A stretch of 64,000 bases of DNA from Blastocatellia bacterium (lineage in GTDB: Bacteria > Acidobacteriota > Blastocatellia > UBA7656), in assembly GCA_963765495.1 (NCBI GenBank), contig CAVXWP010000007.1, forward strand, positions 32,001 through 96,000. The letters run 5' to 3'. Below, one piece after another: positions 9,486 through 24,859 of the stretch. Made by a program: the position numbers and the translations under genes. The notes below the pieces were generated by a model. The model was not told the origin of the DNA. It made no database searches and was given only the letters and a program-made list of their open reading frames with translations. Position 1 is the stretch's first letter. The number at the start of each line of letters is the position of its first letter.

Positions 9486-11213
9486 ATGCCTGACAACGCA
9501 AATCAATCTTCAGACGAAACGGTTTTGATACTGGGAGGGGCGGGTCTGGTCGGTATGCAGGTAGCCCATCAGGTGGCTCGCGATCTGCGCCCTCAGAAAG
9601 TGGTCATCGCCTCGCTCTATCATAAAGAGGTGCGAGAGATAGTCCACGAACTGAGAAAAGAGTTCCACGCCGTCGAGTTTGTAGAGCTTTGGGGCAACCT
9701 CTTTGTCAGAACCGAATTTGCCAGGGAGGACCGGGGCGAGTTGATCGCAAGCCCTGCCAGAAGGCGCGCTATTTACGAAGATTTGCTTGGACCGCTAAAT
9801 GATGCCTACGAGAAATCGATGCTCGTTGCCGCGATACGCCAGCATCGCCCCAACATCCTGATCGACTGCGTCAACACCGCTTCCGGCATCAGCTATCAGG
9901 ATGTTTACACCAACTCAATCGAGGCGCGAAAGGGACTCGACCTTATCGAAGAGTGCGTCAAAGACCGCGACTTCAAACAGATATGGGGCAATCGCAAATC
10001 GCTCGAACGCACCTTCGAAACCCTGCTTGTTGCGCAATCAATCCCACAACTGATCCGGCACACTCAGTTGCTCTATCGCGCTATGGTCGAAGCGGGCACG
10101 CGCATCTATGTCAAAGTAGGCACTACGGGCACGGGCGGCATGGGATTGAACATCCCTTACACTCACGGCGAAGACAAGCCCTCGCCTCAATTGATGTCGA
10201 AGACGGCTGTCGCCTTCGCTCATACGGGGCTGATGTTTTTGATGGCTCGCACACCCGACGGACCTATTGTGAAAGAGGTCAAACCCGGCGCGATGATCGG
10301 TTATAAGAAAGTCACATACCAGTCGCTCAAGAATCGCCGCGACAACTCTTCGGTTCCGATGTATGCGCCACGCTCTCAATCGCTCGACGGAGAGCTTGCG
10401 CTCGCGCTGCCTAAAGAGAGCTTCAATCGTCTGGGCGAGCTTGAGATGGTAGGCGTAGACACGGGCGAGAACGGCTTTTTCGCTCGCGGGGAATTTGAAG
10501 CCGTTACTTCCATCAACCAGATGGAGTTTGTGACCCCCGAAGAGATAGCCCGCAACGTGGTGCTTGAGATCAAGGGCAGCAACACCGGGGTTGATGTGAT
10601 CGCCGCCATCGACAGCGCCATCATGACGCCGAGCTATCGCGCAGGCTACCTGAGAGGTTCGGCCATTGAAGCCATGAGGCGGCTGGAACGCGAGACGGGT
10701 TCTCATTCGATAGCCACGGGCGAGCTTGGGCCGCCGAAGCTTACAAAGCTGCTTTATGAAACCCATCTGTTAAAGCAGAAGTACCACATGCTTCAGGCGG
10801 TCGTCGAACGCGACGCCGAAGAGATTTCACTTGCGCTCTGGCGCTACCTCCAGCGCAATCAGAATCTGCGAAATACAATCATCTCGATAGGCATTCCGAT
10901 ACTCCCGCCCGATGGTGTGCGATTGATTCGCGGGCCTCACATCAGAGTGCCCGAATACGCGGGCGAGCCTAAACTTGATGTCACCGCCCCGGCTATAGAA
11001 CAATGGGCCGAGCGCGGATGGATTGACCTGAGAGCCAAAAACATCGAACGCTGGCAGGACCGTTTCCGGCGAATGCTGCGCTCGGCGCAGATGATTCATC
11101 GCCAGGGCTCGGCCGGGATCACTATGGAAGCCTACCGCAGCGAAGATATAAGAATCGGCGAAGTGGTGGGCTGGATTTTCAACAACGAAGAAGAGGGTTA
11201 CAGGATCAAATGA
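9486..11213 (+). CDS. Uncharacterised Rossmann-fold (SDR-like) NAD(P)-binding protein between pheS and pheT
   Basis: N-terminal [10 protein letters not shown] dinucleotide-binding motif; conserved-looking [20 protein letters not shown]. Overlaps the pheT start (ATGA). Confidence 0.7.
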
Positions 11214-14209: not shown

Positions 14210-17200
14210 TCACGTCCTTTTCATTTCAACTCCGTCTTCGCTTTGCGAGTTCACCGTGCTCGTCTTCCTGCGAAGCGTAAAGAGTGTCTCTCCCGTCGGG
14301 CGTTTGTGCCAGCCGACATCGGCTTCGATCAGACTTGCGCGCGAGCGGATGTTACTCAAACCCCGTCCGGTGAGCGTGGCATTGCTCGACGGGACGAAAC
14401 CACCCCCGTCGTCCTCAAGCTCAAGCAGGAAATCGCCTTCCGGTTCGATTGCGATCCGAAGCCGAACACGCCTCGCGCTTGAATGACGGCAGATGTTGCT
14501 CACCGCTTCCTGCACTATGCGATAGATTTGAATCTGGACAGCCGGGGTGATTTTCAATCTCTCTTCCAGATTATCTTCCGAGGTGAATTCATAATCGAAC
14601 TGTCGCTCGACCGGCAGATGAGCCACCGCGTCTGCGAGCGCCCATTCGAGCGCCGCCGCAAGCCCCACGTTTGCAAGCACGGAAGGGCTCAGGTCTTCGC
14701 ATATACGGCGAATTTCGTTGGAAATGGATTGTATCTCGCCCCGGAACTCTGCCGGGGTGATCTGTTTATGACCGTTTGTGGATTTGCCTGCGGGCAATTC
14801 GTCCGTGAGCAGGAGCAATCGGCGAAGGTCCGCAAGCGTCTGGTCGTGGAGGTCGCGGGCTATGCGGCGGCGTTCGGTTTCGGTCTCCGTAGCCAGTTGC
14901 ATGCGAGTCCGTCCAAGCTGGCTGTTTGCCACGGCGAGCGCGTCGTTTGTTCTGGCAAGCCTTCTATTCTGTCGCGACCCCCACCAGACGGCTATCAGTG
15001 CCAGGGTGAGCAACACCGAAAGCGCCATCGTGGTCCAGGGAAAGGGCGCGCTTGCTACCGTGAATTCGAGCATTAGCGGCTCGCTCGCTACAAGATCGCT
15101 GGTGTAGGCGTGGGCCATGATTTTATAGCGACCGGGGCGCAGATTTTCCACGAGCATTTGGGAGTCGCGCGCGAGCTTTTGCCTTATCAATTTCCCGCTG
15201 GCATCAAGCAGCGAAAACGAATACTGAAACTGCTCGGGAAAGGTCCGACTGCTTGTCGCCGCCACATCAATCGCAAGGCTGTTTTGCGGGTATTCCAGAC
15301 TCAGCCCCTCGCGTATCTCTTCGGGCTGATATACGCGCTTGCCCATCACGCGAGTTATCTTGAGCGGCGGAGCCGCTTGCCCGGGTTCGTATCTCACAAC
15401 GCCCCGGCTCGTGGCTATCCATAATGTCCGGCCGTGCGGCTGACGGGGCGCGGTCAGCACGGCGAACACGTTTTCGGAAGGAAGCCCCTGTTCCCCGTCC
15501 ATCTGCGCGATGACCTGGTTGCCCTGTTTATCAATCAACACGCGAAACAATCCGCCGCCCACCGAGGCGCACCAGAGCGATGCTTTATCATCATCATCAA
15601 GGGCGAGGCTTCTAATGTCGTTCGATTCGATGACGGCGCTCAACTCTCCCGCTTTCAAAGCGTAAAGCCCCCGCGATGTGCCAAGCCACAAATAATCATC
15701 GCTCTTGCCTTCGATTGCCCAGACCGTGTTGCCTTTGAGTTGATCGAAGGCGGGCGCGGGCTGCACCTGTCGGCCGTCGAATAGAAAGAGGCCCGCTTCG
15801 GCAGTGCTTATCCAGAGCCTCGCAGGTCCATCGGCGTGCAGGGCGACTACCCGACGCTCTCTCTCGTCGTCGTCGTCCGGCGGCCATACAAGGGCACGGT
15901 TCGATCCATCTATGCGCTCAAGCCCGTGCCCGAAACTCGCGATATAGGTCACGCCCTGAAAAATGCAAACGGCTCGAACGCTGTCGCCTCCAGAAGCGAC
16001 GGGTGGATTTGATTCGACACGTTCGAAGGCGCGTTTGTCTGTAGCAATGATCGAATCAGCAAGCTCTGAAAGGCGGGTGTTTCGTTTTTCATATGAATGG
16101 TTGGTAACATAGAGTCCCCACGCGGTCCCTACGAGCAGGCGGCCTTCCAGGTCTTCGCCTATCGAATGTATGACCTTATCTTGAAAGGCTTCGACAGGGT
16201 TCCACGGCGAGGAGGGATTGCTCTTAACAAACAGCCCGGAACTGGTGCCGCACCACATGGCCCCGTCTGATGATTGAAACAGGGCGCGAGCGAAATTGCT
16301 TTTCGCAGAGATGCCCGGAAGCTCCACGCGCAGGCCGTGAGGGTCGTACCGGCAGACGCCCCCGTCCGTGCCGAACCAGACTACATCTTCACGGTCAACG
16401 AAGACGGTGTAGACGTGATTCGAGCGCATCCCGCCAGCCGTGTTCTCGAATGTAAAATGTTCGAGCCTGTCGAGTGAGACCGAGTTTTGCTGTCGCCGGT
16501 CTTGCTGATAATAGAAGGCCCCGTCCTCATCCGTGCCTATCCACATACGGCCCGTGGAGTCAAACTTAATCGCCGTGATGGTGCCGGTGTCGGTGCCCAT
16601 CTTTTCAGGGCGGGCAAGGTTGCCGCTTTCAAAGAGGCCGCTGTCTCTGGCCGTCGTCTGGGCGCCAAACCACATTCGCCCGTGCGGATCGACCTCGATT
16701 GCCTCTACGAAAAAGGCGCGCGGGTGGCTCAGGATTTCTTTCACCTCGCCTCGTTCGATTGCGAGCAATCCCCGGCTGCGTGTGCCTGCAATCAGAGTCT
16801 CGCCAATCAAGGCAAGGCTCGTGAGGGGAAGCGGTCGGCCGCCGCCTGAATCAATTCTCAAAAGCGAATGATCTTTTGGCTCGATGGTCTGAACCGCGAG
16901 GGTGCCATCCGCGATTGTCGAGCAATCAAAGATCACGCCTTCGCGGCTTGCCATCACTGCGCGCCCTTCGGCGGGAGTGATGATCGAGGTCACGGCCTTG
17001 CCCGATGTTTCGGGGATCAACTCAAATCGCTCATCGATCAATCGAGCCGCGCCCGAGTCGGTTCCTATCCAGAGCACTCCATCGGGTGCGAACCGAAGCG
17101 CGAGCACGCGATTTGCGGCAGGCCCTTCTGCCGCGATTTTTTGAATGCGGCGACCATCGTAACGCGCAAGCCCGCTGTCGGTCCCAAACCACATCACCCC

Positions 17201-17398
17201 GTCGCGGTCCTCGGCTATGGCTCGCACGTGATTTGAAGGAAGCCCGTGAAAGAGCGTGATCGCGCCCCAGGCGTGCGGGTTGACAGACGGCGCGGGGAGA
17301 GAGTCGCCTTCGGGTTCAGCAAATGAAATCGCCGCCCCGGCGAGCAATAGAAAGAGAGCAAGAAGAAGATAATAACGATGGCGCATGGGTTGTAGCAT
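14210..17398 (-). CDS. Sensor histidine kinase with periplasmic two-component-regulator beta-propeller, Ig-like domain and HisKA_3/HATPase
   Basis: Repeated GLPSN.V.AI.ED..G.MWFGT..GL.RYDG blades, one TM helix, ERRRIARDLHD H-box, EAVSNICRHS, DDGGGF, GRGL. Confidence 0.92.
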   Translation of the reverse strand: MLQPMRHRYYLLLALFLLLAGAAISFAEPEGDSLPAPSVNPHAWGAITLFHGLPSNHVRAIAEDRDGVMWFGTDSGLARYDGRRIQKIAAEGPAANRVLALRFAPDGVLWIGTDSGAARLIDERFELIPETSGKAVTSIITPAEGRAVMASREGVIFDCSTIADGTLAVQTIEPKDHSLLRIDSGGGRPLPLTSLALIGETLIAGTRSRGLLAIERGEVKEILSHPRAFFVEAIEVDPHGRMWFGAQTTARDSGLFESGNLARPEKMGTDTGTITAIKFDSTGRMWIGTDEDGAFYYQQDRRQQNSVSLDRLEHFTFENTAGGMRSNHVYTVFVDREDVVWFGTDGGVCRYDPHGLRVELPGISAKSNFARALFQSSDGAMWCGTSSGLFVKSNPSSPWNPVEAFQDKVIHSIGEDLEGRLLVGTAWGLYVTNHSYEKRNTRLSELADSIIATDKRAFERVESNPPVASGGDSVRAVCIFQGVTYIASFGHGLERIDGSNRALVWPPDDDDERERRVVALHADGPARLWISTAEAGLFLFDGRQVQPAPAFDQLKGNTVWAIEGKSDDYLWLGTSRGLYALKAGELSAVIESNDIRSLALDDDDKASLWCASVGGGLFRVLIDKQGNQVIAQMDGEQGLPSENVFAVLTAPRQPHGRTLWIATSRGVVRYEPGQAAPPLKITRVMGKRVYQPEEIREGLSLEYPQNSLAIDVAATSSRTFPEQFQYSFSLLDASGKLIRQKLARDSQMLVENLRPGRYKIMAHAYTSDLVASEPLMLEFTVASAPFPWTTMALSVLLTLALIAVWWGSRQNRRLARTNDALAVANSQLGRTRMQLATETETERRRIARDLHDQTLADLRRLLLLTDELPAGKSTNGHKQITPAEFRGEIQSISNEIRRICEDLSPSVLANVGLAAALEWALADAVAHLPVERQFDYEFTSEDNLEERLKITPAVQIQIYRIVQEAVSNICRHSSARRVRLRIAIEPEGDFLLELEDDGGGFVPSSNATLTGRGLSNIRSRASLIEADVGWHKRPTGETLFTLRRKTSTVNSQSEDGVEMKRT

Positions 17399-17414: not shown

Positions 17415-17538
17415 GTGATGCGTGATGCGTGATGCGTGATGCGTGATTTTCTGGTTGTTGAACCTTTACCAGCCACTTGCTCAACTTCCGGGTCACGTAT
17501 CACGGATCACGCATCACAAATCACAAATCACAAATCAC
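17415..17538. repeat. (GTGATGC)n...(ATCAC)n heptamer palindrome, second copy of the 9365 element
   Basis: Four to five GTGATGC units, the same core as 9365-9471, right arm TCACGTA TCACGGA TCACGCA TCACAAA TCACAAA. Confidence 0.88.
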
Positions 17539-18302
17539 CGTGTTGGCCGAGCCGTTCGTTCCTGCGTGTATCGCGCGCGGTCTCGCTCGATCCAGCTTTC
17601 AAGGTCGTGGGCGGCCTTCTCCAGTTCATCGCTGTTGAGCAGGCCGCGCCGCAATGCTTCAAAGAAGGCCCGCGTTCGCACATTGTATGCGAGCTTGTCG
17701 TATGTTTCGTGCGAGGTGCCTTCCGAGGAGGCCGCAAAGAGTTTTTCATACAGGGTCGCAAGGCGGCTCTCGACTCCACGGAGGCTCAAGCTGCATTTGC
17801 GAGCTATAGCCCAGTTCGAAAGACCGAGGGCGAGGTAATAAAGCGCCTCGGCTTCGAACTCGGTCAGCAGGGGTCGCTTGAAGGAATCCTTAAAAGCCGG
17901 GTCTATCATATCCGCGCCGTCTTCGAGTACGGCGGCGATAAAGCGCAGAAATCGCGTTTCAGGATTGTTCTTATCTATGAATCCGTATGCGGGCGGCGGC
18001 TCGACCGATTTGATGATCTTGCGAATTTCGTTGATGTAAATCTCGTGCGGGAACTGAGTCCAGAAAATAATCCTGGCTCTGGGAAATCCGCGCCAGATGG
18101 CGCGCGCGGCCTTCACCCCCGAGAGCCTGGGCATCTGAATGTCCAGCACGCAAAGCTCGGGGCGATGCTCAAGCGCAAGCTCGATAGTAGCTTCGCCGTC
18201 CGAGGCTTCGATCACCGGCAGGTGTGCGTGAAATTCTCTCTCAAGAAGCTCGCGCAGGTAAGTGCGTTGCGCCACGTTGTCTTCGGCTATCAGAATAGAC
18301 AT
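17535..18302 (-). CDS. NarL/FixJ-type response regulator (REC plus LuxR-type HTH)
   Basis: ILIAEDN, VLDIQMP, LLTEFEAEALYYLALGLSN..IA; cognate to the adjacent HisKA_3 kinase. Confidence 0.9.
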   Translation of the reverse strand: MSILIAEDNVAQRTYLRELLEREFHAHLPVIEASDGEATIELALEHRPELCVLDIQMPRLSGVKAARAIWRGFPRARIIFWTQFPHEIYINEIRKIIKSVEPPPAYGFIDKNNPETRFLRFIAAVLEDGADMIDPAFKDSFKRPLLTEFEAEALYYLALGLSNWAIARKCSLSLRGVESRLATLYEKLFAASSEGTSHETYDKLAYNVRTRAFFEALRRGLLNSDELEKAAHDLESWIERDRARYTQERTARPTR

Positions 18303-18574: not shown

Positions 18575-19855
18575 ATGACCATCATCGCGCGTAAGCGCGA
18601 TCCGGGCAGTGACAAGCCCTGCCACTACAGAGAATCAGAATTCAGAAATATAGTAGCCCTTGCTGTGCTCGTTGCGCTCCTGGTTTTACCTCGCGCCACA
18701 TCGGCCGCCGAGTTTGCCGATGTGGCTATTGAGGCAAAAGACGGGCGCGCTATGGAGTGGTTTTATGAGTCGCTCAGGCGAACCGAAGCGAGAGAATCCA
18801 TCACTCGAATTCTGCATTACGGAGACTCGCACATAGCCGCAGATATTCTGACGGGCGCTCTTAGACAGAGATTTCAGCGAGGCTTCGGAGACGCGGGGCT
18901 CGGATTTGTGCTTGCGGGAAAGCCCTGGCAGTGGTACTGGCGCAAAGGGCTTTCGAGCTATTCGAGCAAAGGCTGGCGCGTAGACGGGCTCTCTCAGGCT
19001 TCGCTTGCCACAGACAACCGGCTGGGACTTGCGGGCGTGAGCCTGAGCGCGTACCGCGCGGGCGAATGGGTTTGCCTGGAAGCTGCGGGCGCAAGATTTG
19101 ACCTCTACCTTATGAAGCAAGCGGGCGGCGGCACGGTTGATGTGCTGCTCGACGGCGCTCTCTATCATCACGGCCTGTCGCTTTTATCAAGCAAACCGGA
19201 ACCTCTCTATCTTGAAGTGGCGGCAGGCTACGACGGCTCTCATACGATAGAGCTTCGCGTAGCCTCGACGGGGTGGGTGCGCATATTCGGAGTGGTTGCC
19301 GAGCGCGACCGGCCGGGCGTCGTCTATGATGCGTTGGGCATCAACGGCGCTCGCGCCGACCGCCCCTTGATGTGGGACCGACGTATCCTCAAAGACAACA
19401 TCGAAAGACGTGACCCCGATCTGATTGTGATCTCGTACGGCTCAAACGAGGTAGGCGATGCGGACCTCGATCTGGCCGAGTACGGCAAATCATTTTCAGC
19501 TCTGCTCACAAGACTGCACACGGCAGCCCCTCGCGCCTCGCTCCTGGTGATCAGCCCGCCCGACCGAGCCACGCGCGCAGGCGCGAGGTGGCAAACCATA
19601 AACCGAATGTCCTTGCTTGTCGAGACTCAGCGGCAGGCGGCATTCCGATCAGGCGCGGCCTTCTGGGACCTGTTTCACGCGATGGGCGGAGCCGGTTCAA
19701 TCGAGCGATGGGCGACCTTGCCAGCGCCGCTCGCCCAGACGGACCGCGTGCACCTTACTGCTACCGGGTATCGACTGGTAGCCGAAAATCTCTACAGGCA
19801 ACTGATGCTCGCTTATCTGTGGACGGTCATCGAAGAGGAGCTGGGCGAAAGATAA
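18575..19855 (+). CDS. Periplasmic SGNH/GDSL acyltransferase or esterase (PatB/Ape-like); start uncertain
   Basis: Blocks LHYGDSH, GINGA, SYGSNE and DRVH after a hydrophobic N-terminal segment. Confidence 0.85.
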   Translation: MTIIARKRDPGSDKPCHYRESEFRNIVALAVLVALLVLPRATSAAEFADVAIEAKDGRAMEWFYESLRRTEARESITRILHYGDSHIAADILTGALRQRFQRGFGDAGLGFVLAGKPWQWYWRKGLSSYSSKGWRVDGLSQASLATDNRLGLAGVSLSAYRAGEWVCLEAAGARFDLYLMKQAGGGTVDVLLDGALYHHGLSLLSSKPEPLYLEVAAGYDGSHTIELRVASTGWVRIFGVVAERDRPGVVYDALGINGARADRPLMWDRRILKDNIERRDPDLIVISYGSNEVGDADLDLAEYGKSFSALLTRLHTAAPRASLLVISPPDRATRAGARWQTINRMSLLVETQRQAAFRSGAAFWDLFHAMGGAGSIERWATLPAPLAQTDRVHLTATGYRLVAENLYRQLMLAYLWTVIEEELGER

Positions 19856-21282
19856 TGTTTTTCACAAGCGGCACATACTATGTTTTTCTGGTTGCGGTCT
19901 TTTTCGCCTACTGGACGGTGGCGAAAAAGAGTGGCTTGCGGACCCTGTTTCTGGCCGCCGCGAGTTGTTTCTTCTACGCGAATATCGGCGGGCGGGCTCT
20001 GTTGTTGCTTATAGCGGTCTCGATGGTTGACTTCACAACCACTCGAATGATGAGCCGGGATTGCTCTCGATTGAGGCGCAGGCTGCTTTTGAGCGCATCG
20101 CTTGTTGTGGACATCGGTTCGCTGTGTGTCTTTAAGTATGCCGATTTTTTCATGGAATCTGTCGCGGGCGGGCTTTCGAGTTTCGGACTGGCAATCGAGC
20201 TTCCGCACCTGAATATGCTGGCCCCGATAGGCATTTCATTCTTCATATTTCAATCGCTTTCTTCGGTGATAGACGTTTATCGGAAAGATGCGGAACCGGC
20301 TCCGACCTATCTCGATTACCTTGCCTTTGTCTCGTTCTTTCCTACGATCATCGCGGGGCCTATCCTGCGCGCAAAGCAATTGCTGCCTCAGCTTAGAAAT
20401 CATCTCGCGCTTGATGCGAGCACGGGTGGGCAGGCGCTTTTTCTGATAGCGGTCGGACTCATAAAGAAGATCGCCATGGCCGATTACCTGAGCGCGAATC
20501 TGGTAGACCGGGTCTTCGATTTTCCCGAGCGATTTTCATCTCTCGAAGTCCTGGCGGCCGTTTACGGCTACGCGCTGCAAATCTACGCCGACTTTTCCGG
20601 CTACAGCGACATCGCCATAGGCTCGGCTATGTTGCTTGGCCTCACATTGCCCGTCAATTTCAACGCGCCTTACAGGGCGAGGGACTTGCCGGATTTCTGG
20701 CGGCGCTGGCACATAACGCTTTCCACGTGGCTGCGCGATTATGTCTTTTTCAGCGTAGTAGGTCGTCGGGTTCGCTCTTCGGCAATGCTCTATTGCGGTC
20801 TTGTCGTGACTATGGTTGTCGGCGGGTTGTGGCACGGTCCTACGTGGACGTTCGTGTTGTGGGGGCTGGCGCATGGATTGGGCCTTGCGGCGGTCAGGGC
20901 AATTGCCGCCCTGCGAAAGCGGTTCTCTATACCCCGGCGCAATAACCTCTGGGCCGACTGTTTGAGCGTCATAATCACGTTTCATTTTATCTGTTTTACG
21001 TGGGTGCTGTTTCGAGCCGACAGCCTCGACGCGGCCCTCAAGCTCTTCCGGCAACTGTGTATGCTTACCACAGACACGGCGAATCTTGCCCTGCCTGTTG
21101 GCGTACTGATTGCGCTTGGATTTATTGCTCACTGGCTGCCGGACCGCATCTGGGAGAGGGCCAGCGCGGGGTTTGCGCGATTGCCTTCGCCTGCTCAGGC
21201 GGGCGCATTGTTCCTTCTGGCCATCGGGCTTTATTCGGTCGCGAGCAGCGATGTGGTTCCGTTTATCTATTCCAGGTTTTGA
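19855..21282 (+). CDS. MBOAT family O-acyltransferase (AlgI/PatA/DltB-like)
   Basis: PIGISFFIFQ, FFPTIIAGPI, QIYADFSGYSDIAIG, NF.APY, FWRRWHITLS.WLRDY, GLWHG catalytic His; C-terminal FIYSRF. Coupled start (TAATG). Confidence 0.96.
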   Translation: MFFTSGTYYVFLVAVFFAYWTVAKKSGLRTLFLAAASCFFYANIGGRALLLLIAVSMVDFTTTRMMSRDCSRLRRRLLLSASLVVDIGSLCVFKYADFFMESVAGGLSSFGLAIELPHLNMLAPIGISFFIFQSLSSVIDVYRKDAEPAPTYLDYLAFVSFFPTIIAGPILRAKQLLPQLRNHLALDASTGGQALFLIAVGLIKKIAMADYLSANLVDRVFDFPERFSSLEVLAAVYGYALQIYADFSGYSDIAIGSAMLLGLTLPVNFNAPYRARDLPDFWRRWHITLSTWLRDYVFFSVVGRRVRSSAMLYCGLVVTMVVGGLWHGPTWTFVLWGLAHGLGLAAVRAIAALRKRFSIPRRNNLWADCLSVIITFHFICFTWVLFRADSLDAALKLFRQLCMLTTDTANLALPVGVLIALGFIAHWLPDRIWERASAGFARLPSPAQAGALFLLAIGLYSVASSDVVPFIYSRF

Positions 21283-21286
21283 CATT

Positions 21287-22720
21287 ATGTTTCGATACAA
21301 GAACGACAGCGAAGCAAACGCGCTTGCGGGAAAGACCTCTCGCACGCTCGTCAGCCTTGTGGCGCTGGCGATGTTGCCCTATCTGATCCCGGCCTTGAGC
21401 GGTTATCGCCTGCTAAGCTCTTCGGGGGCGAGCGGTTTGATGACCATTCCCACAGGAGAAGCCGCGATGTCGGATGTTTCGGCGGGGCAGGGCAGGGCCG
21501 TATCATCCGAATCGGATTTGCCCGGCGGCAAGGCGGAGGCTACGCCGGGCGAGGTCGAAGATCCCTCGGGGCGGGCGCTCGATAATTATTTCGCTTCGTT
21601 GCTCAAGGTTGAGCGCGAAGGAGGCCATTCGCGTGTCTGTCATTACGGCGATTCGCCAATAACTAACGACGGCATAACCTCTACCGTGAGGCGGCGGCTG
21701 CAACTCAGATTTGGCGACGCGGGCCACGGATTTATCCTGACTGCAAGGCCCTGGGGCTGGTACGCGCATACGGGTGTCTCTCACGATGAGAGCCGGGGAT
21801 GGTCGGATGACCCTATGGCGATTTCGCGCGGCGATCACATCTACGGTCTCGGATGCGTGAGCTTCACTAATTCGGCGGCGGGCGAGTGGGCGAGCTTTTC
21901 TACTACGGAGGAAGGCGAAGTCGGCCATAGCGTCTCGGCATTCGACATTTACTATCTGGCGCAACCGGGCGGAGGCGATTTCGATGTGGAGGTTGATGGA
22001 GCGACCGAAGGGCGAGTTGCGACCGCAAGCGATGAGGTGAAATCGGGGTTCTATCGCGTAGAGGTGAAAGAGGGCGGGCACAGCCTGGTCTTGAGAGTTG
22101 TTGGCAACGGCGAGGTGCGAGTCTTTGGCGTGGTGCTTGAAAGCGGAGCGCGGGGCGTGGAGTACGATTCGCTTGGTGTCAACGGCGCTTATATCGGATT
22201 GCTCGCCAATTATCTTGATGTCAATCACTGGGCCGAGCAGTTGCGACATCGCAAGCCCGATCTTGTCATCATCGGTTACGGCACAAACGAGAGCCAGTTT
22301 GAGCGCCTGCCGATGGATCAGTATGAGCGAGACACCAGAGAGGCGATACGTCGAATCAGAGCGGCGCTGCCGGGCGTTTCGATAATGCTTGTCGGGCCTA
22401 TGGACCGGGCCATGAGAGGCGCGGGCGGAACACTTGTGACGCGGCCTATGATCCCGAAATTGATCAGTTATCAAAGACGCATCGCATCTGATACGGGTTG
22501 CGCTTTTTTCGACACATACACGGCGATGGGCGGCGAAGGCACGGCGGCCAGATGGTGTCTCGCGCGGCCACGTTTGATGGGCGGCGACTATACACATCCT
22601 ACCGCTCAGGGAGCCGAAATCGTAGGCACGCTCATCTATGACGCAATGATGAGAGCTTATGAGAAGTATAAAGACCGAGAGACAGAAACGGCGCTCAATC
22701 TGAGCCGCGCCGGGCAGTAG
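21287..22720 (+). CDS. Second membrane-anchored SGNH/GDSL acyltransferase or esterase
   Basis: N-terminal TM; HYGDSP, GVNGA, GYGTNE and GDYTHP blocks; paralogous to 18575-19855. Confidence 0.87.
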   Translation: MFRYKNDSEANALAGKTSRTLVSLVALAMLPYLIPALSGYRLLSSSGASGLMTIPTGEAAMSDVSAGQGRAVSSESDLPGGKAEATPGEVEDPSGRALDNYFASLLKVEREGGHSRVCHYGDSPITNDGITSTVRRRLQLRFGDAGHGFILTARPWGWYAHTGVSHDESRGWSDDPMAISRGDHIYGLGCVSFTNSAAGEWASFSTTEEGEVGHSVSAFDIYYLAQPGGGDFDVEVDGATEGRVATASDEVKSGFYRVEVKEGGHSLVLRVVGNGEVRVFGVVLESGARGVEYDSLGVNGAYIGLLANYLDVNHWAEQLRHRKPDLVIIGYGTNESQFERLPMDQYERDTREAIRRIRAALPGVSIMLVGPMDRAMRGAGGTLVTRPMIPKLISYQRRIASDTGCAFFDTYTAMGGEGTAARWCLARPRLMGGDYTHPTAQGAEIVGTLIYDAMMRAYEKYKDRETETALNLSRAGQ

Positions 22721-22729
22721 ACAGGTGTT

Positions 22730-22780
22730 GTTGCGAGACTTCGTTTCTCGCAAAGACGCGAAGACGCAAAGTACGCAAAG
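22730..22780. repeat. Short CGCAAAG-type repeat and hairpin
   Basis: TTGCGAGA-CTTCGTT-TCTCGCAA followed by AGACGCGAAGACGCAAAGTACGCAAAG. Confidence 0.5.
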
Positions 22781-22792
22781 GAGATTATTGAT

Positions 22793-23029
22793 ATGTTACC
22801 GGAAAACGTAATGACTTTCTTAAATCGCGCGGCAGAGGAGGCGCGAACTCAATTGCCCCCCCGCGACTCATCGCTATTTCTGGCAGGTGTGCTCGATTCA
22901 TTTGCGCTGGTAGATTTTGTGACCATGCTTGAGGGCGAGTGCGGCATCTCGATAAGTGACGCCGACCTCAGACCCGAAACCTTCGACACCATCGCAAAGA
23001 TAGAGACTTATATCGAAAGTAGGCAGTAA
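22793..23029 (+). CDS. Acyl or aminoacyl carrier protein (DltC-like)
   Basis: 78 aa, acidic, LF.AGVLDSF (phosphopantetheine Ser), ETFDTIAKI; AAGGAG RBS. Confidence 0.9.
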   Translation: MLPENVMTFLNRAAEEARTQLPPRDSSLFLAGVLDSFALVDFVTMLEGECGISISDADLRPETFDTIAKIETYIESRQ

Positions 23030-23120
23030 GCCGTAGGCAGTTGATACGGAACCGACGGCTACTGCTAAAGAGAGCATGAGGATGCATATGAACAGGTGGT
23101 ACCTAACTGCCTACTGCTTA
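23020..23120. repeat. (AGGCAGT)n...(ACTGCCT)n heptamer palindrome
   Basis: TAGGCAGTAAGCCGTAGGCAGT...ACTGCCTACTGCTTA; includes the ACP stop codon. Confidence 0.7.
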
Positions 23121-23127
23121 ATGAATT

Positions 23128-24162
23128 ATGAAAAGCTATATCACAGGTTATGGTAGCGCGCTGCCCCGGCGGGTGGTGACAAATGCCGAGCTTGCGCCAA
23201 TGCTCGGGGTTGATCCGGGCTGGATCGAAGCCGGTTCCGGGATACGCGAGCGGCGATGGGTTGAGGCCGACCAGTCATGTTCGGACCTTGCGGCCACGGC
23301 CGTAAGTGAGGCGCTCAAAGATGCCCGGGTGAGCGCCGACTGTGTTGATTATTTGATAGGTTGTACGCTCTCTCCAGATTATCAGGTGCCGGGAATCGCG
23401 CCCCTCGTTCAACGCAGGCTTGATGGGTTCGGGCAAATCCCGGCTATTGATCTGCGGGCGGGATGCGCGGGTATTCTCTACAGCCTGCAAATGGCGAGAG
23501 GGCTTATCGAGTCGCGTGCGGCAAACAGGGTTGTCTGTTTCGGCGCTGAGGCGCAATCGAAAGGGCTCGACCTGCGCCCGCAAAGCGCCGAATTGAGCAT
23601 GCTGTTTGGGGATGGCGCTGGCGCTCTTGTTGTGAGTCGAGAGGCGCAAACTGCCGCGCACTATTTCACGCTCTCGATTGATGATGTGCTTATCTTAACC
23701 GACGGGAATTTCGCCGAAGACCTTGTGGTGAAAGCGCCGGGCACGGCCAATGGAGCGCGGTGGTTTGACCCCGCGCAGGCCACATCGGATCTGTATCGGC
23801 CTTCTATGAATGGCCGCAATGTGATTTTGCATGCTGTGCGAAAACTCGCCGAAGCCGCCGCGCAGATAATTGCGCGCAATGAAATCTCGATGGATCAAAT
23901 AGACCTGATCGTTCCGCATCAGGCCAATGCCAACCTGTTGCGGTCGCTCGGCAAGAAGCTGAATTTTTCGGAAGACCGCATAGTGGTCAACGTAGACCGC
24001 TTCGGCAACACAAGCGGCGCTTCCGCCTTTCTCGCGTTGTGGCAAGCCTCGCGCGAACGGAAACTGCGCCCCGGCAACCGCGTTCTCTTACTGGCTTTCG
24101 GCGCGGGTTTCACCTGGGGCGCAGCTATTTGCACCGTCTGCGATGCGGGACGTGATGCGTGA
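23128..24162 (+). CDS. 3-oxoacyl-ACP synthase III (FabH-like)
   Basis: ITGYGSALP..VVTN, SGIRERR, DLRAGCAG (Cys), LFGDGAGA, VPHQAN (His), FGNTSGAS (Asn), AFGAGFTWG. Confidence 0.93.
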   Translation: MKSYITGYGSALPRRVVTNAELAPMLGVDPGWIEAGSGIRERRWVEADQSCSDLAATAVSEALKDARVSADCVDYLIGCTLSPDYQVPGIAPLVQRRLDGFGQIPAIDLRAGCAGILYSLQMARGLIESRAANRVVCFGAEAQSKGLDLRPQSAELSMLFGDGAGALVVSREAQTAAHYFTLSIDDVLILTDGNFAEDLVVKAPGTANGARWFDPAQATSDLYRPSMNGRNVILHAVRKLAEAAAQIIARNEISMDQIDLIVPHQANANLLRSLGKKLNFSEDRIVVNVDRFGNTSGASAFLALWQASRERKLRPGNRVLLLAFGAGFTWGAAICTVCDAGRDA

Positions 24163-24219: not shown

Positions 24220-24798
24220 TTACCGAACTTTTTTGAGCAGATCATCCGGGTCTTGAGGCACGCCGATGAAGGGGAGATTGCGATACATTTCGGCCACGTC
24301 CAACCCGTAGCCTACTACGAATTCATTCGGTATGGTAAAGCCTATGTAACGGGCATCGATCTCGATCTGGTGGCGCTCGGGTTTGTCGAGCAACGCGGCG
24401 ATGGCCAGCGATTTCACATCGCGCGATTTGAAAATATTGACCATGTAATTCAGCGTCAACCCCGTGTCTATTATGTCTTCAACCACTAAAACGTCTTTGC
24501 CCGCGAGACTCAGATCGAGGTCTTTGGTTATTCTCACTTCACCCGAAGATTTCGTCGAAGCGCCGTAGCTGGATATGCCTATGAAGTCGAGCGACATCGG
24601 CAGGTCAATCTCTCTCATCAAATCCGACAAAAAGACGCACGCGCCTTTCAGCACGCCTACCAGATGAAGCGACTTGCCCGCGTAATCACTGGTGATCTGG
24701 CTGCCTATCTCACGCACTCGCGCTTCGAGCCGTTCGGCGCTAATCATGACTTTCAGATTCGGGTCGTTCATAAAAGAGGCTCGTTCGCTTGCAGTCAT
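24220..24798 (-). CDS. hpt: Hypoxanthine phosphoribosyltransferase
   Basis: VGVLKGACVFLSDL, SSYG, VLVVEDIIDTGLTL, FVVGYGLD; AAGGAG before ATG 24798. Confidence 0.96.
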   Translation of the reverse strand: MTASERASFMNDPNLKVMISAERLEARVREIGSQITSDYAGKSLHLVGVLKGACVFLSDLMREIDLPMSLDFIGISSYGASTKSSGEVRITKDLDLSLAGKDVLVVEDIIDTGLTLNYMVNIFKSRDVKSLAIAALLDKPERHQIEIDARYIGFTIPNEFVVGYGLDVAEMYRNLPFIGVPQDPDDLLKKVR

Positions 24799-24829
24799 TT
24801 TTATCTCCTTGAATGTGGATTGAGCGTGC

Positions 24830-24859
24830 AATATACGAGAAGCCGCCGCGCTCTGTCAA
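24830..24859 (-). promoter_or_regulatory. sigma70 promoter of hpt
   Basis: Minus-strand TTGACA-N18-TATATT. Confidence 0.6.

Follow-up and report, generated by a model that had tools for sequence, protein, structure and literature searches.

A candidate Dlt-like, carrier-protein-dependent MBOAT/SGNH cassette for envelope glycan O-acylation in Acidobacteriota

Introduction

How could an O-acylation system of the cell envelope draw on a dedicated carrier protein when its genes include no adenylating enzyme to charge that carrier? [quoted passage not shown] Two schemes are recognised for supplying MBOAT/SGNH systems with acyl groups, namely the direct use of acetyl-coenzyme A (acetyl-CoA) by PatAB and AlgIJX and the use of a carrier loaded by an adenylating enzyme in Dlt; the cassette would be a third. 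An earlier note on this DNA had likewise set PatAB and AlgI, without a carrier, apart from Dlt, with one, which agrees with the accessible sections of PMC12148441, where non-Dlt MBOAT/SGNH pathways are described as lacking a carrier protein.

Our favoured reading, which we regard as reasonably probable on the strength of sequence comparisons, is that the cassette directs a Dlt-like, carrier-protein-dependent MBOAT/SGNH O-acylation of extracytoplasmic envelope glycans of the PatA/Ape type. A hybrid, carrier-fed MBOAT–SGNH system had been proposed in the earlier note, and the conserved linkage of the genes described below argues for it. Envelope acylation by MBOAT and SGNH proteins is itself known; the new part is the donor-supply module, composed of the carrier and the KAS III-like enzyme (KAS). 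The part of the literature that was searched yielded no account of an MBOAT/SGNH pathway that includes a module of KAS III and ACP.

A five-gene cassette with a carrier and no adenylating enzyme

Five co-directional genes occupy positions 18575-24162 on the + strand in the order SGNH1-MBOAT-SGNH2-carrier-KAS, as established by a listing of open reading frames (ORFs) and inspection of start codons, with inferred gene starts; the ORFs together with Pfam and NCBIfam models bear out the gene content and boundaries given in the earlier note (Table 1). The tight spacing that it reported also holds, since the stop codon of SGNH1 overlaps the ATG of the MBOAT gene by 1 nt and the successive gaps measure 4 nt (MBOAT-SGNH2), 72 nt (SGNH2-carrier) and 98 nt (carrier-KAS). 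The sequence AAGGAG lies 5' of the carrier ATG, and no terminator-like site was found within the SGNH2-carrier and carrier-KAS gaps. No AMP-binding (adenylation) domain was detected by Pfam in the 21 ORFs between 6959 and 31007, in keeping with the claim that the locus has no adenylation enzyme, and none was detected in the flanks of 13 other loci either.

Table 1. Window coordinates of the cassette genes, the carrier-KAS spacer and the adjoining two-component pair
Feature	Position	Strand	Basis
SGNH1, 426 aa, Ape1-like	18575..19855	+	Pfam Lipase_GDSL_2, 58 bits (cut-off 32.9)
MBOAT, 475 aa	19855..21282	+	PF03062, 98 bits (cut-off 27)
SGNH2, 477 aa, SGNH1 paralogue, GDSP in block I	21287..22720	+	Lipase_GDSL_2, 62.3 bits
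DltC-like acyl carrier, 78 aa	22793..23029	+	Pfam PP-binding, 29.5 bits (cut-off 20.8)
Carrier-KAS spacer, copy of a dispersed palindromic (REP/MITE-like) repeat	23030..23127		RNA fold, genome copies
KAS III-like enzyme, 344 aa	23128..24162	+	Pfam ACP_syn_III_C, 104 bits; ACP_syn_III, 63 bits
LuxR-type response regulator, divergent from the cassette	17535..18302	-	Pfam Response_reg, GerE
Sensor histidine kinase	14210..17398	-	Pfam Reg_prop beta-propeller repeats, HisKA_3, HATPase_c

The carrier-KAS spacer folds into a long hairpin (98 nt; minimum free energy -33.4 kcal/mol, z -3.68, with 0 of 200 shuffled sequences as stable). About 77 nt of it constitute a repeat, of which copies of 72-77 nt and 84-88% identity lie on contigs C1, C4, C7, C11 and C16, accompanied by many half-copies. 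In several relatives the carrier-KAS junction is instead a 4-nt gene overlap, and in one of them (G014) the SGNH2 and carrier genes overlap as well. These overlaps and the lack of terminator-like sites in the two gaps bear on separate transcription of carrier and KAS, which the earlier note had listed among the refutations of its idea. A separate promoter in the 98-nt gap was considered and rejected, because this spacer is one of the copies of the dispersed hairpin repeat and several relatives lack it.

Linkage of the cassette genes across genomes and metagenomes

Among 40 relatives, full-length KAS orthologues of 60-69% identity occur in 11, elsewhere there are just FabH paralogues of 27-36% identity, and MBOAT orthologues of 58-75% identity occur in the same 11; the other 29 have neither gene. 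All 11 cassette-bearing relatives keep the order SGNH1-MBOAT-SGNH2-carrier-KAS, and in G020 the cassette is split across two short contigs. The earlier note would have given up its idea had carrier and KAS not been conserved beside the MBOAT-SGNH genes; they are, in the same order in these 11 relatives and in other orders in distant Acidobacteriota and in metagenomes. In another relative, G007, the 3' half of the response-regulator gene (residues 127-255) abuts the last 75 codons of KAS (residues 264-338) beside hpt (L098, G007:C104, 3168-3778), a scar that reads as the loss of the whole cassette in a single deletion.

A scan of species-representative genomes seeded with the MBOAT returned 80 loci. 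Three of them (L006, L015 and L044, all Acidobacteriota) have the order MBOAT-SGNH2-SGNH1-carrier-KAS, where the labels SGNH1 and SGNH2, as in all distant loci, denote the best tblastn paralogue match only; many others, from Bacteroidota, Pseudomonadota, Myxococcota and Cloacimonadota, are SGNH-SGNH-MBOAT cassettes without carrier or KAS. A protein homologue search with the carrier returned 33 proteins, close relatives only, one of them named Blastocatellia, and the close homologues of carrier and KAS are named Blastocatellia in their source records.

Metagenomes were scanned with the carrier alone (alignment A1), and 80 loci were analysed out of at least 518 confirmed stretches. Where at least 300 nt of downstream sequence were available (72 loci), a KAS gene follows on the same strand within 400 nt of the carrier in 70, the exceptions being L144 and L152. 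Of 70 loci, 56 have the end of an SGNH gene no more than 500 nt upstream of the carrier, and an MBOAT is present in every one of the 23 loci with at least 4.8 kb upstream. With s for SGNH1, M for MBOAT, S for SGNH2, a for carrier and K for KAS, the 19 long-flank loci comprise 13 of order MSsaK, four sMSaK, one sMSa and one in which carrier-KAS accompanies a divergent MBOAT. At least five arrangements thus keep the genes together: sMSaK; MSsaK; the type of L146, where carrier-KAS faces a divergent MBOAT and an AlgX-type SGNH; that of G216 and G274 (L197 and L198), where SGNH-SGNH-MBOAT-SGNH with three Ape1-like paralogues accompanies a convergent KAS(Ser)-carrier pair; and that of L172, which reads MBOAT-x-carrier-KAS followed by a UDP-GlcNAc 2-epimerase, with an ABC transporter also in the flank.

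The extent of the system within the phylum was surveyed in an even sample of 401 genomes. A carrier-like match is found in 70 of them at E <=1e-10 and in 17 at E <=1e-14, and an MBOAT match in 156 (a tally that includes the unpublished G063 and G087, which enter no other result). The carrier lies within 5 kb of an MBOAT in 13 of the 401, which are nine of the ten best carrier matches together with G216, G274, G294 and G409. At E <=1e-14 no carrier was found among 301 genomes sampled from the phylum of G434, nor among 301 from that of G433; neither sample holds a known positive, so that little is shown by either.

Descent of the carrier-linked MBOATs

An MBOAT tree of 114 rows was built with FastTree after matches of fewer than 400 residues had been dropped. 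A single clade of 47 rows (support 97) contains 41 of the 42 carrier-linked MBOATs, the 42nd being the long-branch L172. The other six rows of the clade are L011 and L014, whose long flanks contain no carrier, and four loci that sit on short contigs. In all five of these six that were examined (all but L023) a carrier is encoded elsewhere in the genome (90-93 bits); a Ser-type KAS directly follows that carrier in four of the five genomes, and in two of the four it continues a broken contig with SGNH genes. The nearest outgroups of the clade are carrier-free SGNH-SGNH-MBOAT cassettes, and of the five genomes with the nearest of these four have no carrier match at E <=1e-8, the fifth having a weak one far from the MBOAT. 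The tree is most simply explained if the carrier-KAS unit was recruited once, within the Acidobacteriota, by a cassette that lacked a carrier.

The MBOAT, the carrier and the SGNH proteins

The MBOAT of the cassette is the only one found in the genome. Its His286 (RRWH) and His327 (LWHG) are invariant in alignment A2 (40 sequences) and align with DltB, and its C-terminus is FIYSRF, an FXYXXF motif containing Tyr472, of which F470, Y472 and F475 are nearly invariant in the same alignment; all full-length MBOATs listed among the loci of relatives end in F[IV]Y..F. The accessible sections of PMC12148441 describe FXYXXF as an acyl-shuttle motif, whose Tyr, in DltX and PatA, takes the acyl group over from the MBOAT and delivers it to the SGNH protein, and as being fused to the MBOAT on two extra helices in non-Dlt systems. 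The match to the DltB structures 8jem and 6bug is confined to residues 121-387, two hydrophobic segments follow, and the score against the DltB equivalog model TIGR04091 is 203.8 bits, below the cut-off of 375. Because the FXYXXF motif is fused to it on two extra C-terminal segments, the window MBOAT is, judged from its sequence, of PatA/AlgI build. PatA/AlgI pathways are also carrier-free, and here the clade of the window MBOAT departs from them by gene linkage, a carrier being linked in 41 of its 47 rows (the acyl donor is predicted).

The carrier has its phosphopantetheine site at Ser36 within GVLDSF, invariant in alignment A1. Its best NCBIfam model is DltC NF003464 (32.1 bits, below the cut-off of 68), it scores 17.6 bits against TIGR01688 (cut-off 52.35), and among solved structures it is closest to stand-alone peptidyl and D-alanyl carrier proteins. 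By these scores it is DltC-like and not a DltC equivalog; family models and the residue map agree with the earlier note on both its GVLDSF motif and the intact catalytic triad of KAS.

Docking of the carrier on the MBOAT was explored by complex prediction, which gave a median score of 0.36, the best of three controls giving 0.00. Of 157 solved complexes 116 attain the pass mark, as do 2 of 215 mismatched pairs; passes at a score of 0.60 or lower account for only 18 of the 157 solved complexes and include both of these mismatches. The predictions used our own alignments, so the calibration is a rough one. At least 63% of contacts agree between runs, with a partner pLDDT (predicted local distance difference test) of at least 73. 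The DltB-DltC complex has already been solved, and the pass may therefore merely mirror the likeness of our pair to it. The predicted docking, weakly supported, adds a little to the case.

Both SGNH proteins retain blocks I (GDS), II (G), III (GxN) and V (DxxH), as does every orthologue that covers them, and for SGNH2 all blocks are kept in 17 of 17 sequences. The predicted catalytic residues are Ser85, Gly258, Asn291, Asp390 and His393 in SGNH1, which has a domain inserted between blocks I and II, and Ser123, Gly300, Asn334, Asp434 and His437 in SGNH2. The best solved relative of SGNH1 is Ape1 of N. meningitidis (4k3u, E 1.2e-25), which SGNH2 matches over its full length including the inserted domain (E 1.4e-17), and both match a second structure, 4k40, whose identity as Ape1 and whose domain inserted after block I, a beta-sandwich in this family, are taken from 10.1101/788067 and PMC9487903. 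Homology and the inserted domain place both proteins in the Ape1 family, with esterase activity predicted only. A hydrophobic N-terminal segment, read by eye from the sequence, predicts that both are extracytoplasmic or periplasmic.

The inserted domain varies in genus g7, where SGNH1 has just 282-291 aa (L089, 10211-11086; L095, 4197-5045) and keeps all catalytic blocks; the tblastn matches skip roughly residues 113-237, which correspond to the inserted domain. In L014 (10951-12377) the SGNH1 homologue lies in two overlapping frames, probably through a frameshift; the carrier and KAS of that genome are encoded as a pair at another place.

A proposed route from the cytoplasm to the envelope

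We propose that the route would start in the cytoplasm, where the KAS III-like enzyme would load a short acyl group onto the phosphopantetheine arm that the DltC-like carrier bears on Ser36. Cys113 could serve this step by acyl-CoA:ACP transacylation; alternatively, malonyl-carrier could be decarboxylated to acetyl-carrier with the aid of His264 and Asn294. The loaded carrier would then bind the MBOAT from the cytoplasmic side, in the way DltC binds DltB, a His of the MBOAT would move the acyl group to the enzyme's own Tyr472, and from the FIYSRF motif it would reach the catalytic Ser in one Ape1-like SGNH protein of the periplasm. The latter would esterify the acceptor, most probably peptidoglycan, while the second SGNH paralogue could serve as co-transferase or as the esterase that removes the group. 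The acyl group is most likely acetyl, a different short acyl being possible.

What the KAS III-like enzyme may do

The cassette KAS is distinct from the housekeeping FabH, the opposite of which had been named in advance as fatal to the idea of a dedicated module. The window genome has a second FabH on G000:C9 that scores 374.9 bits against TIGR00747, above the cut-off of 292.1, whereas the cassette KAS scores 261.2 and falls below it; against the subfamily model NF006829 (cut-off 249) both are above, with 419 and 276.5 bits. The C9 enzyme has every feature of a housekeeping FabH (TIGR00747, Cys-His-Asn, Arg249 and Arg36). All nine cluster KAS aligned have Asn or His (Asn in the window) where E. 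coli FabH has residue 249, and a residue other than Arg (Gly in the window) at the equivalent of position 36, whereas E. coli FabH and the C9 FabH of the genome have Arg at both. In FabH, Arg249 and Arg36 are ACP and CoA contacts. The pattern fits a change of carrier partner. A quick IQ-TREE analysis (LG+G4) of 36 rows, made up of 12 window-type KAS, the three distant ones of L006, L015 and L044, and 21 housekeeping or other FabHs from 19 loci, unites the window-type and distant KAS (SH-aLRT 95) apart from all other FabHs.

The triad Cys113-His264-Asn294 is intact by a residue map against E. coli FabH, and Cys-His-Asn is kept in the 11 orthologues too. The best solved relatives of the window KAS are PqsD (3h76) and FabHs, which are condensing enzymes, and no entry named ChlB3, CerJ or DpsC stood among the solved relatives at E <=1e-20 for the window KAS or at E <=1e-15 for the Ser-type KAS; by sequence, Cys-type and Ser-type cluster KAS are thus both nearest to true FabHs and PqsD. 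Of the 70 carrier-adjacent KAS matches in the metagenome loci, 58 span more than 250 residues, and these divide into 32 with Ser-His-Asn, 23 with Cys-His-Asn and three with Cys that are truncated. The Ser-type sister clade has the motif ASAGS. The Asn is kept in all 55 long matches that reach its column, and the Cys-His-Asp triad of CerJ and ChlB3 does not occur among them.

These counts bear on the suggestion in the earlier note that KAS III loads or condenses the acyl group on the carrier. Because 32 of the 58 related KAS have Ser in place of the catalytic Cys, and because the Cys and Ser clades share orthologous carrier, MBOAT and SGNH partners and should therefore perform a function open to both nucleophiles, loading of the carrier, or decarboxylation of malonyl-carrier to acetyl-carrier, appears the better reading; the loading half of the suggestion is preferred and the condensing half less favoured. 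In the accessible parts of PMC10869286, the FabB variants C161A and C163A show strong decarboxylation of malonyl-ACP to acetyl-ACP and no condensation, and in those of PMC9573744 the KSIII-like ChlB3 loads a carrier, CerJ transfers malonyl and DpsC has a Ser nucleophile, the triad of CerJ and ChlB3 being Cys-His-Asp with the Asn replaced. The strict retention of Asn in the cluster KAS fits decarboxylation, and acyl-CoA:carrier transacylation by way of an acyl-enzyme is still possible, the Asn having become Asp in CerJ and ChlB3.

In a first alternative the route through carrier, MBOAT, SGNH and glycan is the same and KAS III condenses, yielding a β-ketoacyl carrier (acetoacetyl, for instance, out of acetyl-CoA and malonyl-carrier) and hence a non-acetyl group on the envelope. 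The intact triad of the window KAS and its 11 orthologues and the condensing activity of PqsD and FabH speak in its favour, and a dedicated carrier would be easier to explain if the group were not abundant as a CoA ester. It is nevertheless an improbable account: the sister clade with orthologous partners has a Ser nucleophile, loss of the Cys reportedly abolishes condensation in a KAS (PMC10869286), and no reductase or dehydratase was found by Pfam in the flanks of the window cassette or of 13 other loci examined.

Unrelated to the cassette are tandem FabH-like paralogues with the motif NLGCSGY, about 2.5 kb apart, in genus g7 (L108, G006:C16; L116, G023:C33), which branch apart in the KAS tree as a deep clade of their own.

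The acceptor

Peptidoglycan is probably the acceptor, by analogy with the O-acetylated peptidoglycan (OAP) clusters. In the portion of Weadge et al. (2005; PMC1199599) available, ape1b and ape1c precede pat in such clusters, and O-acetylated peptidoglycan was measured in hosts that include two Bacteroides; the carrier-free sister cassettes of the window MBOAT have the same SGNH-SGNH-MBOAT layout as ape1b-ape1c-pat. By Pfam, 57 flank ORFs of 13 loci and 13 ORFs of the window are, apart from the partners noted at L146 and L172, unrelated housekeeping genes that differ by locus, no polysaccharide-synthesis genes are shared by the flanks of the 13 loci, and no synthase lies near the window cassette. 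Flanks so varied and free of polysaccharide synthases fit a universal acceptor such as peptidoglycan, a fit that is not proof. Ape-like proteins of family CE3 include xylan esterases, and this kinship weakens the assignment, as do the variants L146 and L172 with their other partners.

Weighing the favoured reading

Several points weigh against carrier-dependent acylation through the MBOAT. Every chemical step is inferred, from comparative genomics only. Ape1 itself is an esterase, and PatB/DUF459 (PF04311) has no match in the window genome (97.9% complete); the role of transferase would thus fall to one Ape1-like paralogue, which is an assumption. The window KAS and its clade keep the full Cys-His-Asn, so that condensation is possible for them, and the join of the KAS clade carries a long-branch warning. 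KAS is missing after the carrier at L144 (none within 1.5 kb), at L152, where cassette and carrier are present, and at L208 (none within 1.5 kb), and in the window itself the hairpin repeat parts carrier from KAS. In G390 (L200, L201) and G1036 (L205) the carrier-KAS unit lies far from an MBOAT-SGNH-SGNH cassette in the same genome; the unit is therefore separable and may feed other acyltransferases. The docking prediction is weak, and related genomes are not independent samples.

The separable unit is also what lends some credit to a second alternative, in which carrier and KAS acylate a cytoplasmic intermediate (a nucleotide sugar or a lipid-linked precursor) in the manner of CerJ or ChlB6, and MBOAT and SGNH proteins form an ordinary acetyl-CoA system acting on the same polymer. 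A sugar-acylating KSIII-like enzyme, CerJ, does exist (accessible sections of PMC9573744), and the MBOAT has the fused FXYXXF of PatA, which uses acetyl-CoA (accessible sections of PMC12148441). Three observations make this account improbable as well: the carrier is DltC-like, the carrier-linked MBOATs form a clade of their own, the pattern expected from a change of donor, and no other candidate for loading the carrier was found in the flanks of the window cassette or of the 13 other loci. That the adjacency has no functional meaning, with carrier and KAS serving an unrelated lipid or secondary-metabolite pathway, we consider highly improbable: natural-product clusters often contain FabH paralogues with ACPs of their own, and the two gene groups are tied by sequence comparison, yet the linkage survives at least five gene orders or orientations across families of the phylum, both orthologues are present in 11 of the 40 relatives and neither in 29, and no other biosynthetic genes travel with the carrier-KAS pair.

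Relation to known acylation systems

Like the Dlt pathway (DltA/C/B/X/D), by which teichoic acids are D-alanylated, the cassette has a DltC-like carrier beside a DltB-related MBOAT and an extracytoplasmic SGNH protein, known here from the genes, together with an FXYXXF motif, and it would follow the same logic of transfer from carrier thioester to MBOAT, Tyr, SGNH Ser and polymer that the accessible sections of PMC12148441 set out. Unlike Dlt, it has a thiolase-fold KAS III-like enzyme in place of the adenylating DltA, its shuttle motif forms part of the MBOAT, as it does in PatA, no DltX microprotein being present, its SGNH proteins are Ape1-like and not DltD, its host is a diderm acidobacterium, and neither its MBOAT nor its carrier reaches the cut-off of the respective equivalog model, DltB or DltC.

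With the OAP clusters (PatA/PatB/Ape1, and ape1b-ape1c-pat of Bacteroides) the cassette shares an FXYXXF MBOAT and two Ape1-family SGNH proteins, and carrier-free SGNH-SGNH-MBOAT cassettes are the nearest relatives of its MBOAT. It differs in the addition of a carrier and a KAS III-like enzyme, PatA using acetyl-CoA without a carrier (PMC12148441, accessible sections), and in that no PatB/DUF459 was found in the window genome. The alginate (AlgI/AlgJ/AlgF/AlgX) and cellulose (WssH/WssI) systems also join an MBOAT to periplasmic SGNH-like transferases acting on a secreted glycan, and the metagenome variant L146 has an AlgX-type SGNH with carrier-KAS and MBOAT; those systems, however, reside in polysaccharide synthase operons without a carrier, whereas the cassette has no synthase nearby.

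The KAS shares a FabH-like fold with the KAS III and KSIII-like enzymes PqsD, ChlB3, CerJ and DpsC, of which ChlB3 loads a carrier and DpsC uses a Ser nucleophile (PMC9573744, accessible sections). Unlike CerJ and ChlB3, the cluster KAS is nearer to FabH and PqsD by sequence and keeps both His and Asn, and its partners are a DltC-like carrier and an MBOAT and not a polyketide pathway.

Neighbouring genes

The cassette is bordered by the divergent response regulator and, downstream, by a convergent hpt (24220-24831, -). Upstream lie rplT, pheS, pheT, zapA and the genes of the histidine kinase and response regulator, and downstream follow hpt, rpiB and an extracytoplasmic function (ECF) sigma factor. 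The response regulator is 83-89% identical in relatives and stands divergent beside SGNH1 there, and by tblastn the kinase adjoins it in 5 of the 11 cassette-bearing relatives (L087, L088, L089, L092 and L095). Reg_prop repeats are typical of glycan-sensing regulators. The two-component pair may respond to signals from the envelope or from glycans and regulate the cassette, the kinase being a possible regulator by its position. The divergent pair is more conserved than the cassette itself. Between pheS and pheT an ORF of 575 aa (9486-11213) has no Pfam family at E <=1e-5.

Biological significance

As a natural intermediate between the two recognised schemes, the cassette offers a direct test of how an MBOAT chooses its donor. 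The carrier and KAS amount to a portable two-gene unit that would supply acyl-carrier, and the metagenome matches suggest that cassette-bearing Acidobacteriota are common in environmental samples.

A more far-reaching view, which we put forward as unlikely though worth stating, is that Acidobacteria have a family of programmable O-acylation systems for peptidoglycan or another envelope glycan, in which a thiolase-fold enzyme charges a dedicated carrier and the cell can thereby place an ester other than acetyl on its wall. The Cys-type clade of Blastocatellia could then use acetoacetyl or another 3-oxoacyl group, propionyl or a different short acyl, and the Ser-type clade another group. If this were true, cell-wall modification would gain a new chemical class, and the MBOAT would be the first outside Dlt to draw its acyl group from a carrier protein. 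The cassette may also point to an unknown modification of the wall or surface in the Acidobacteriota.

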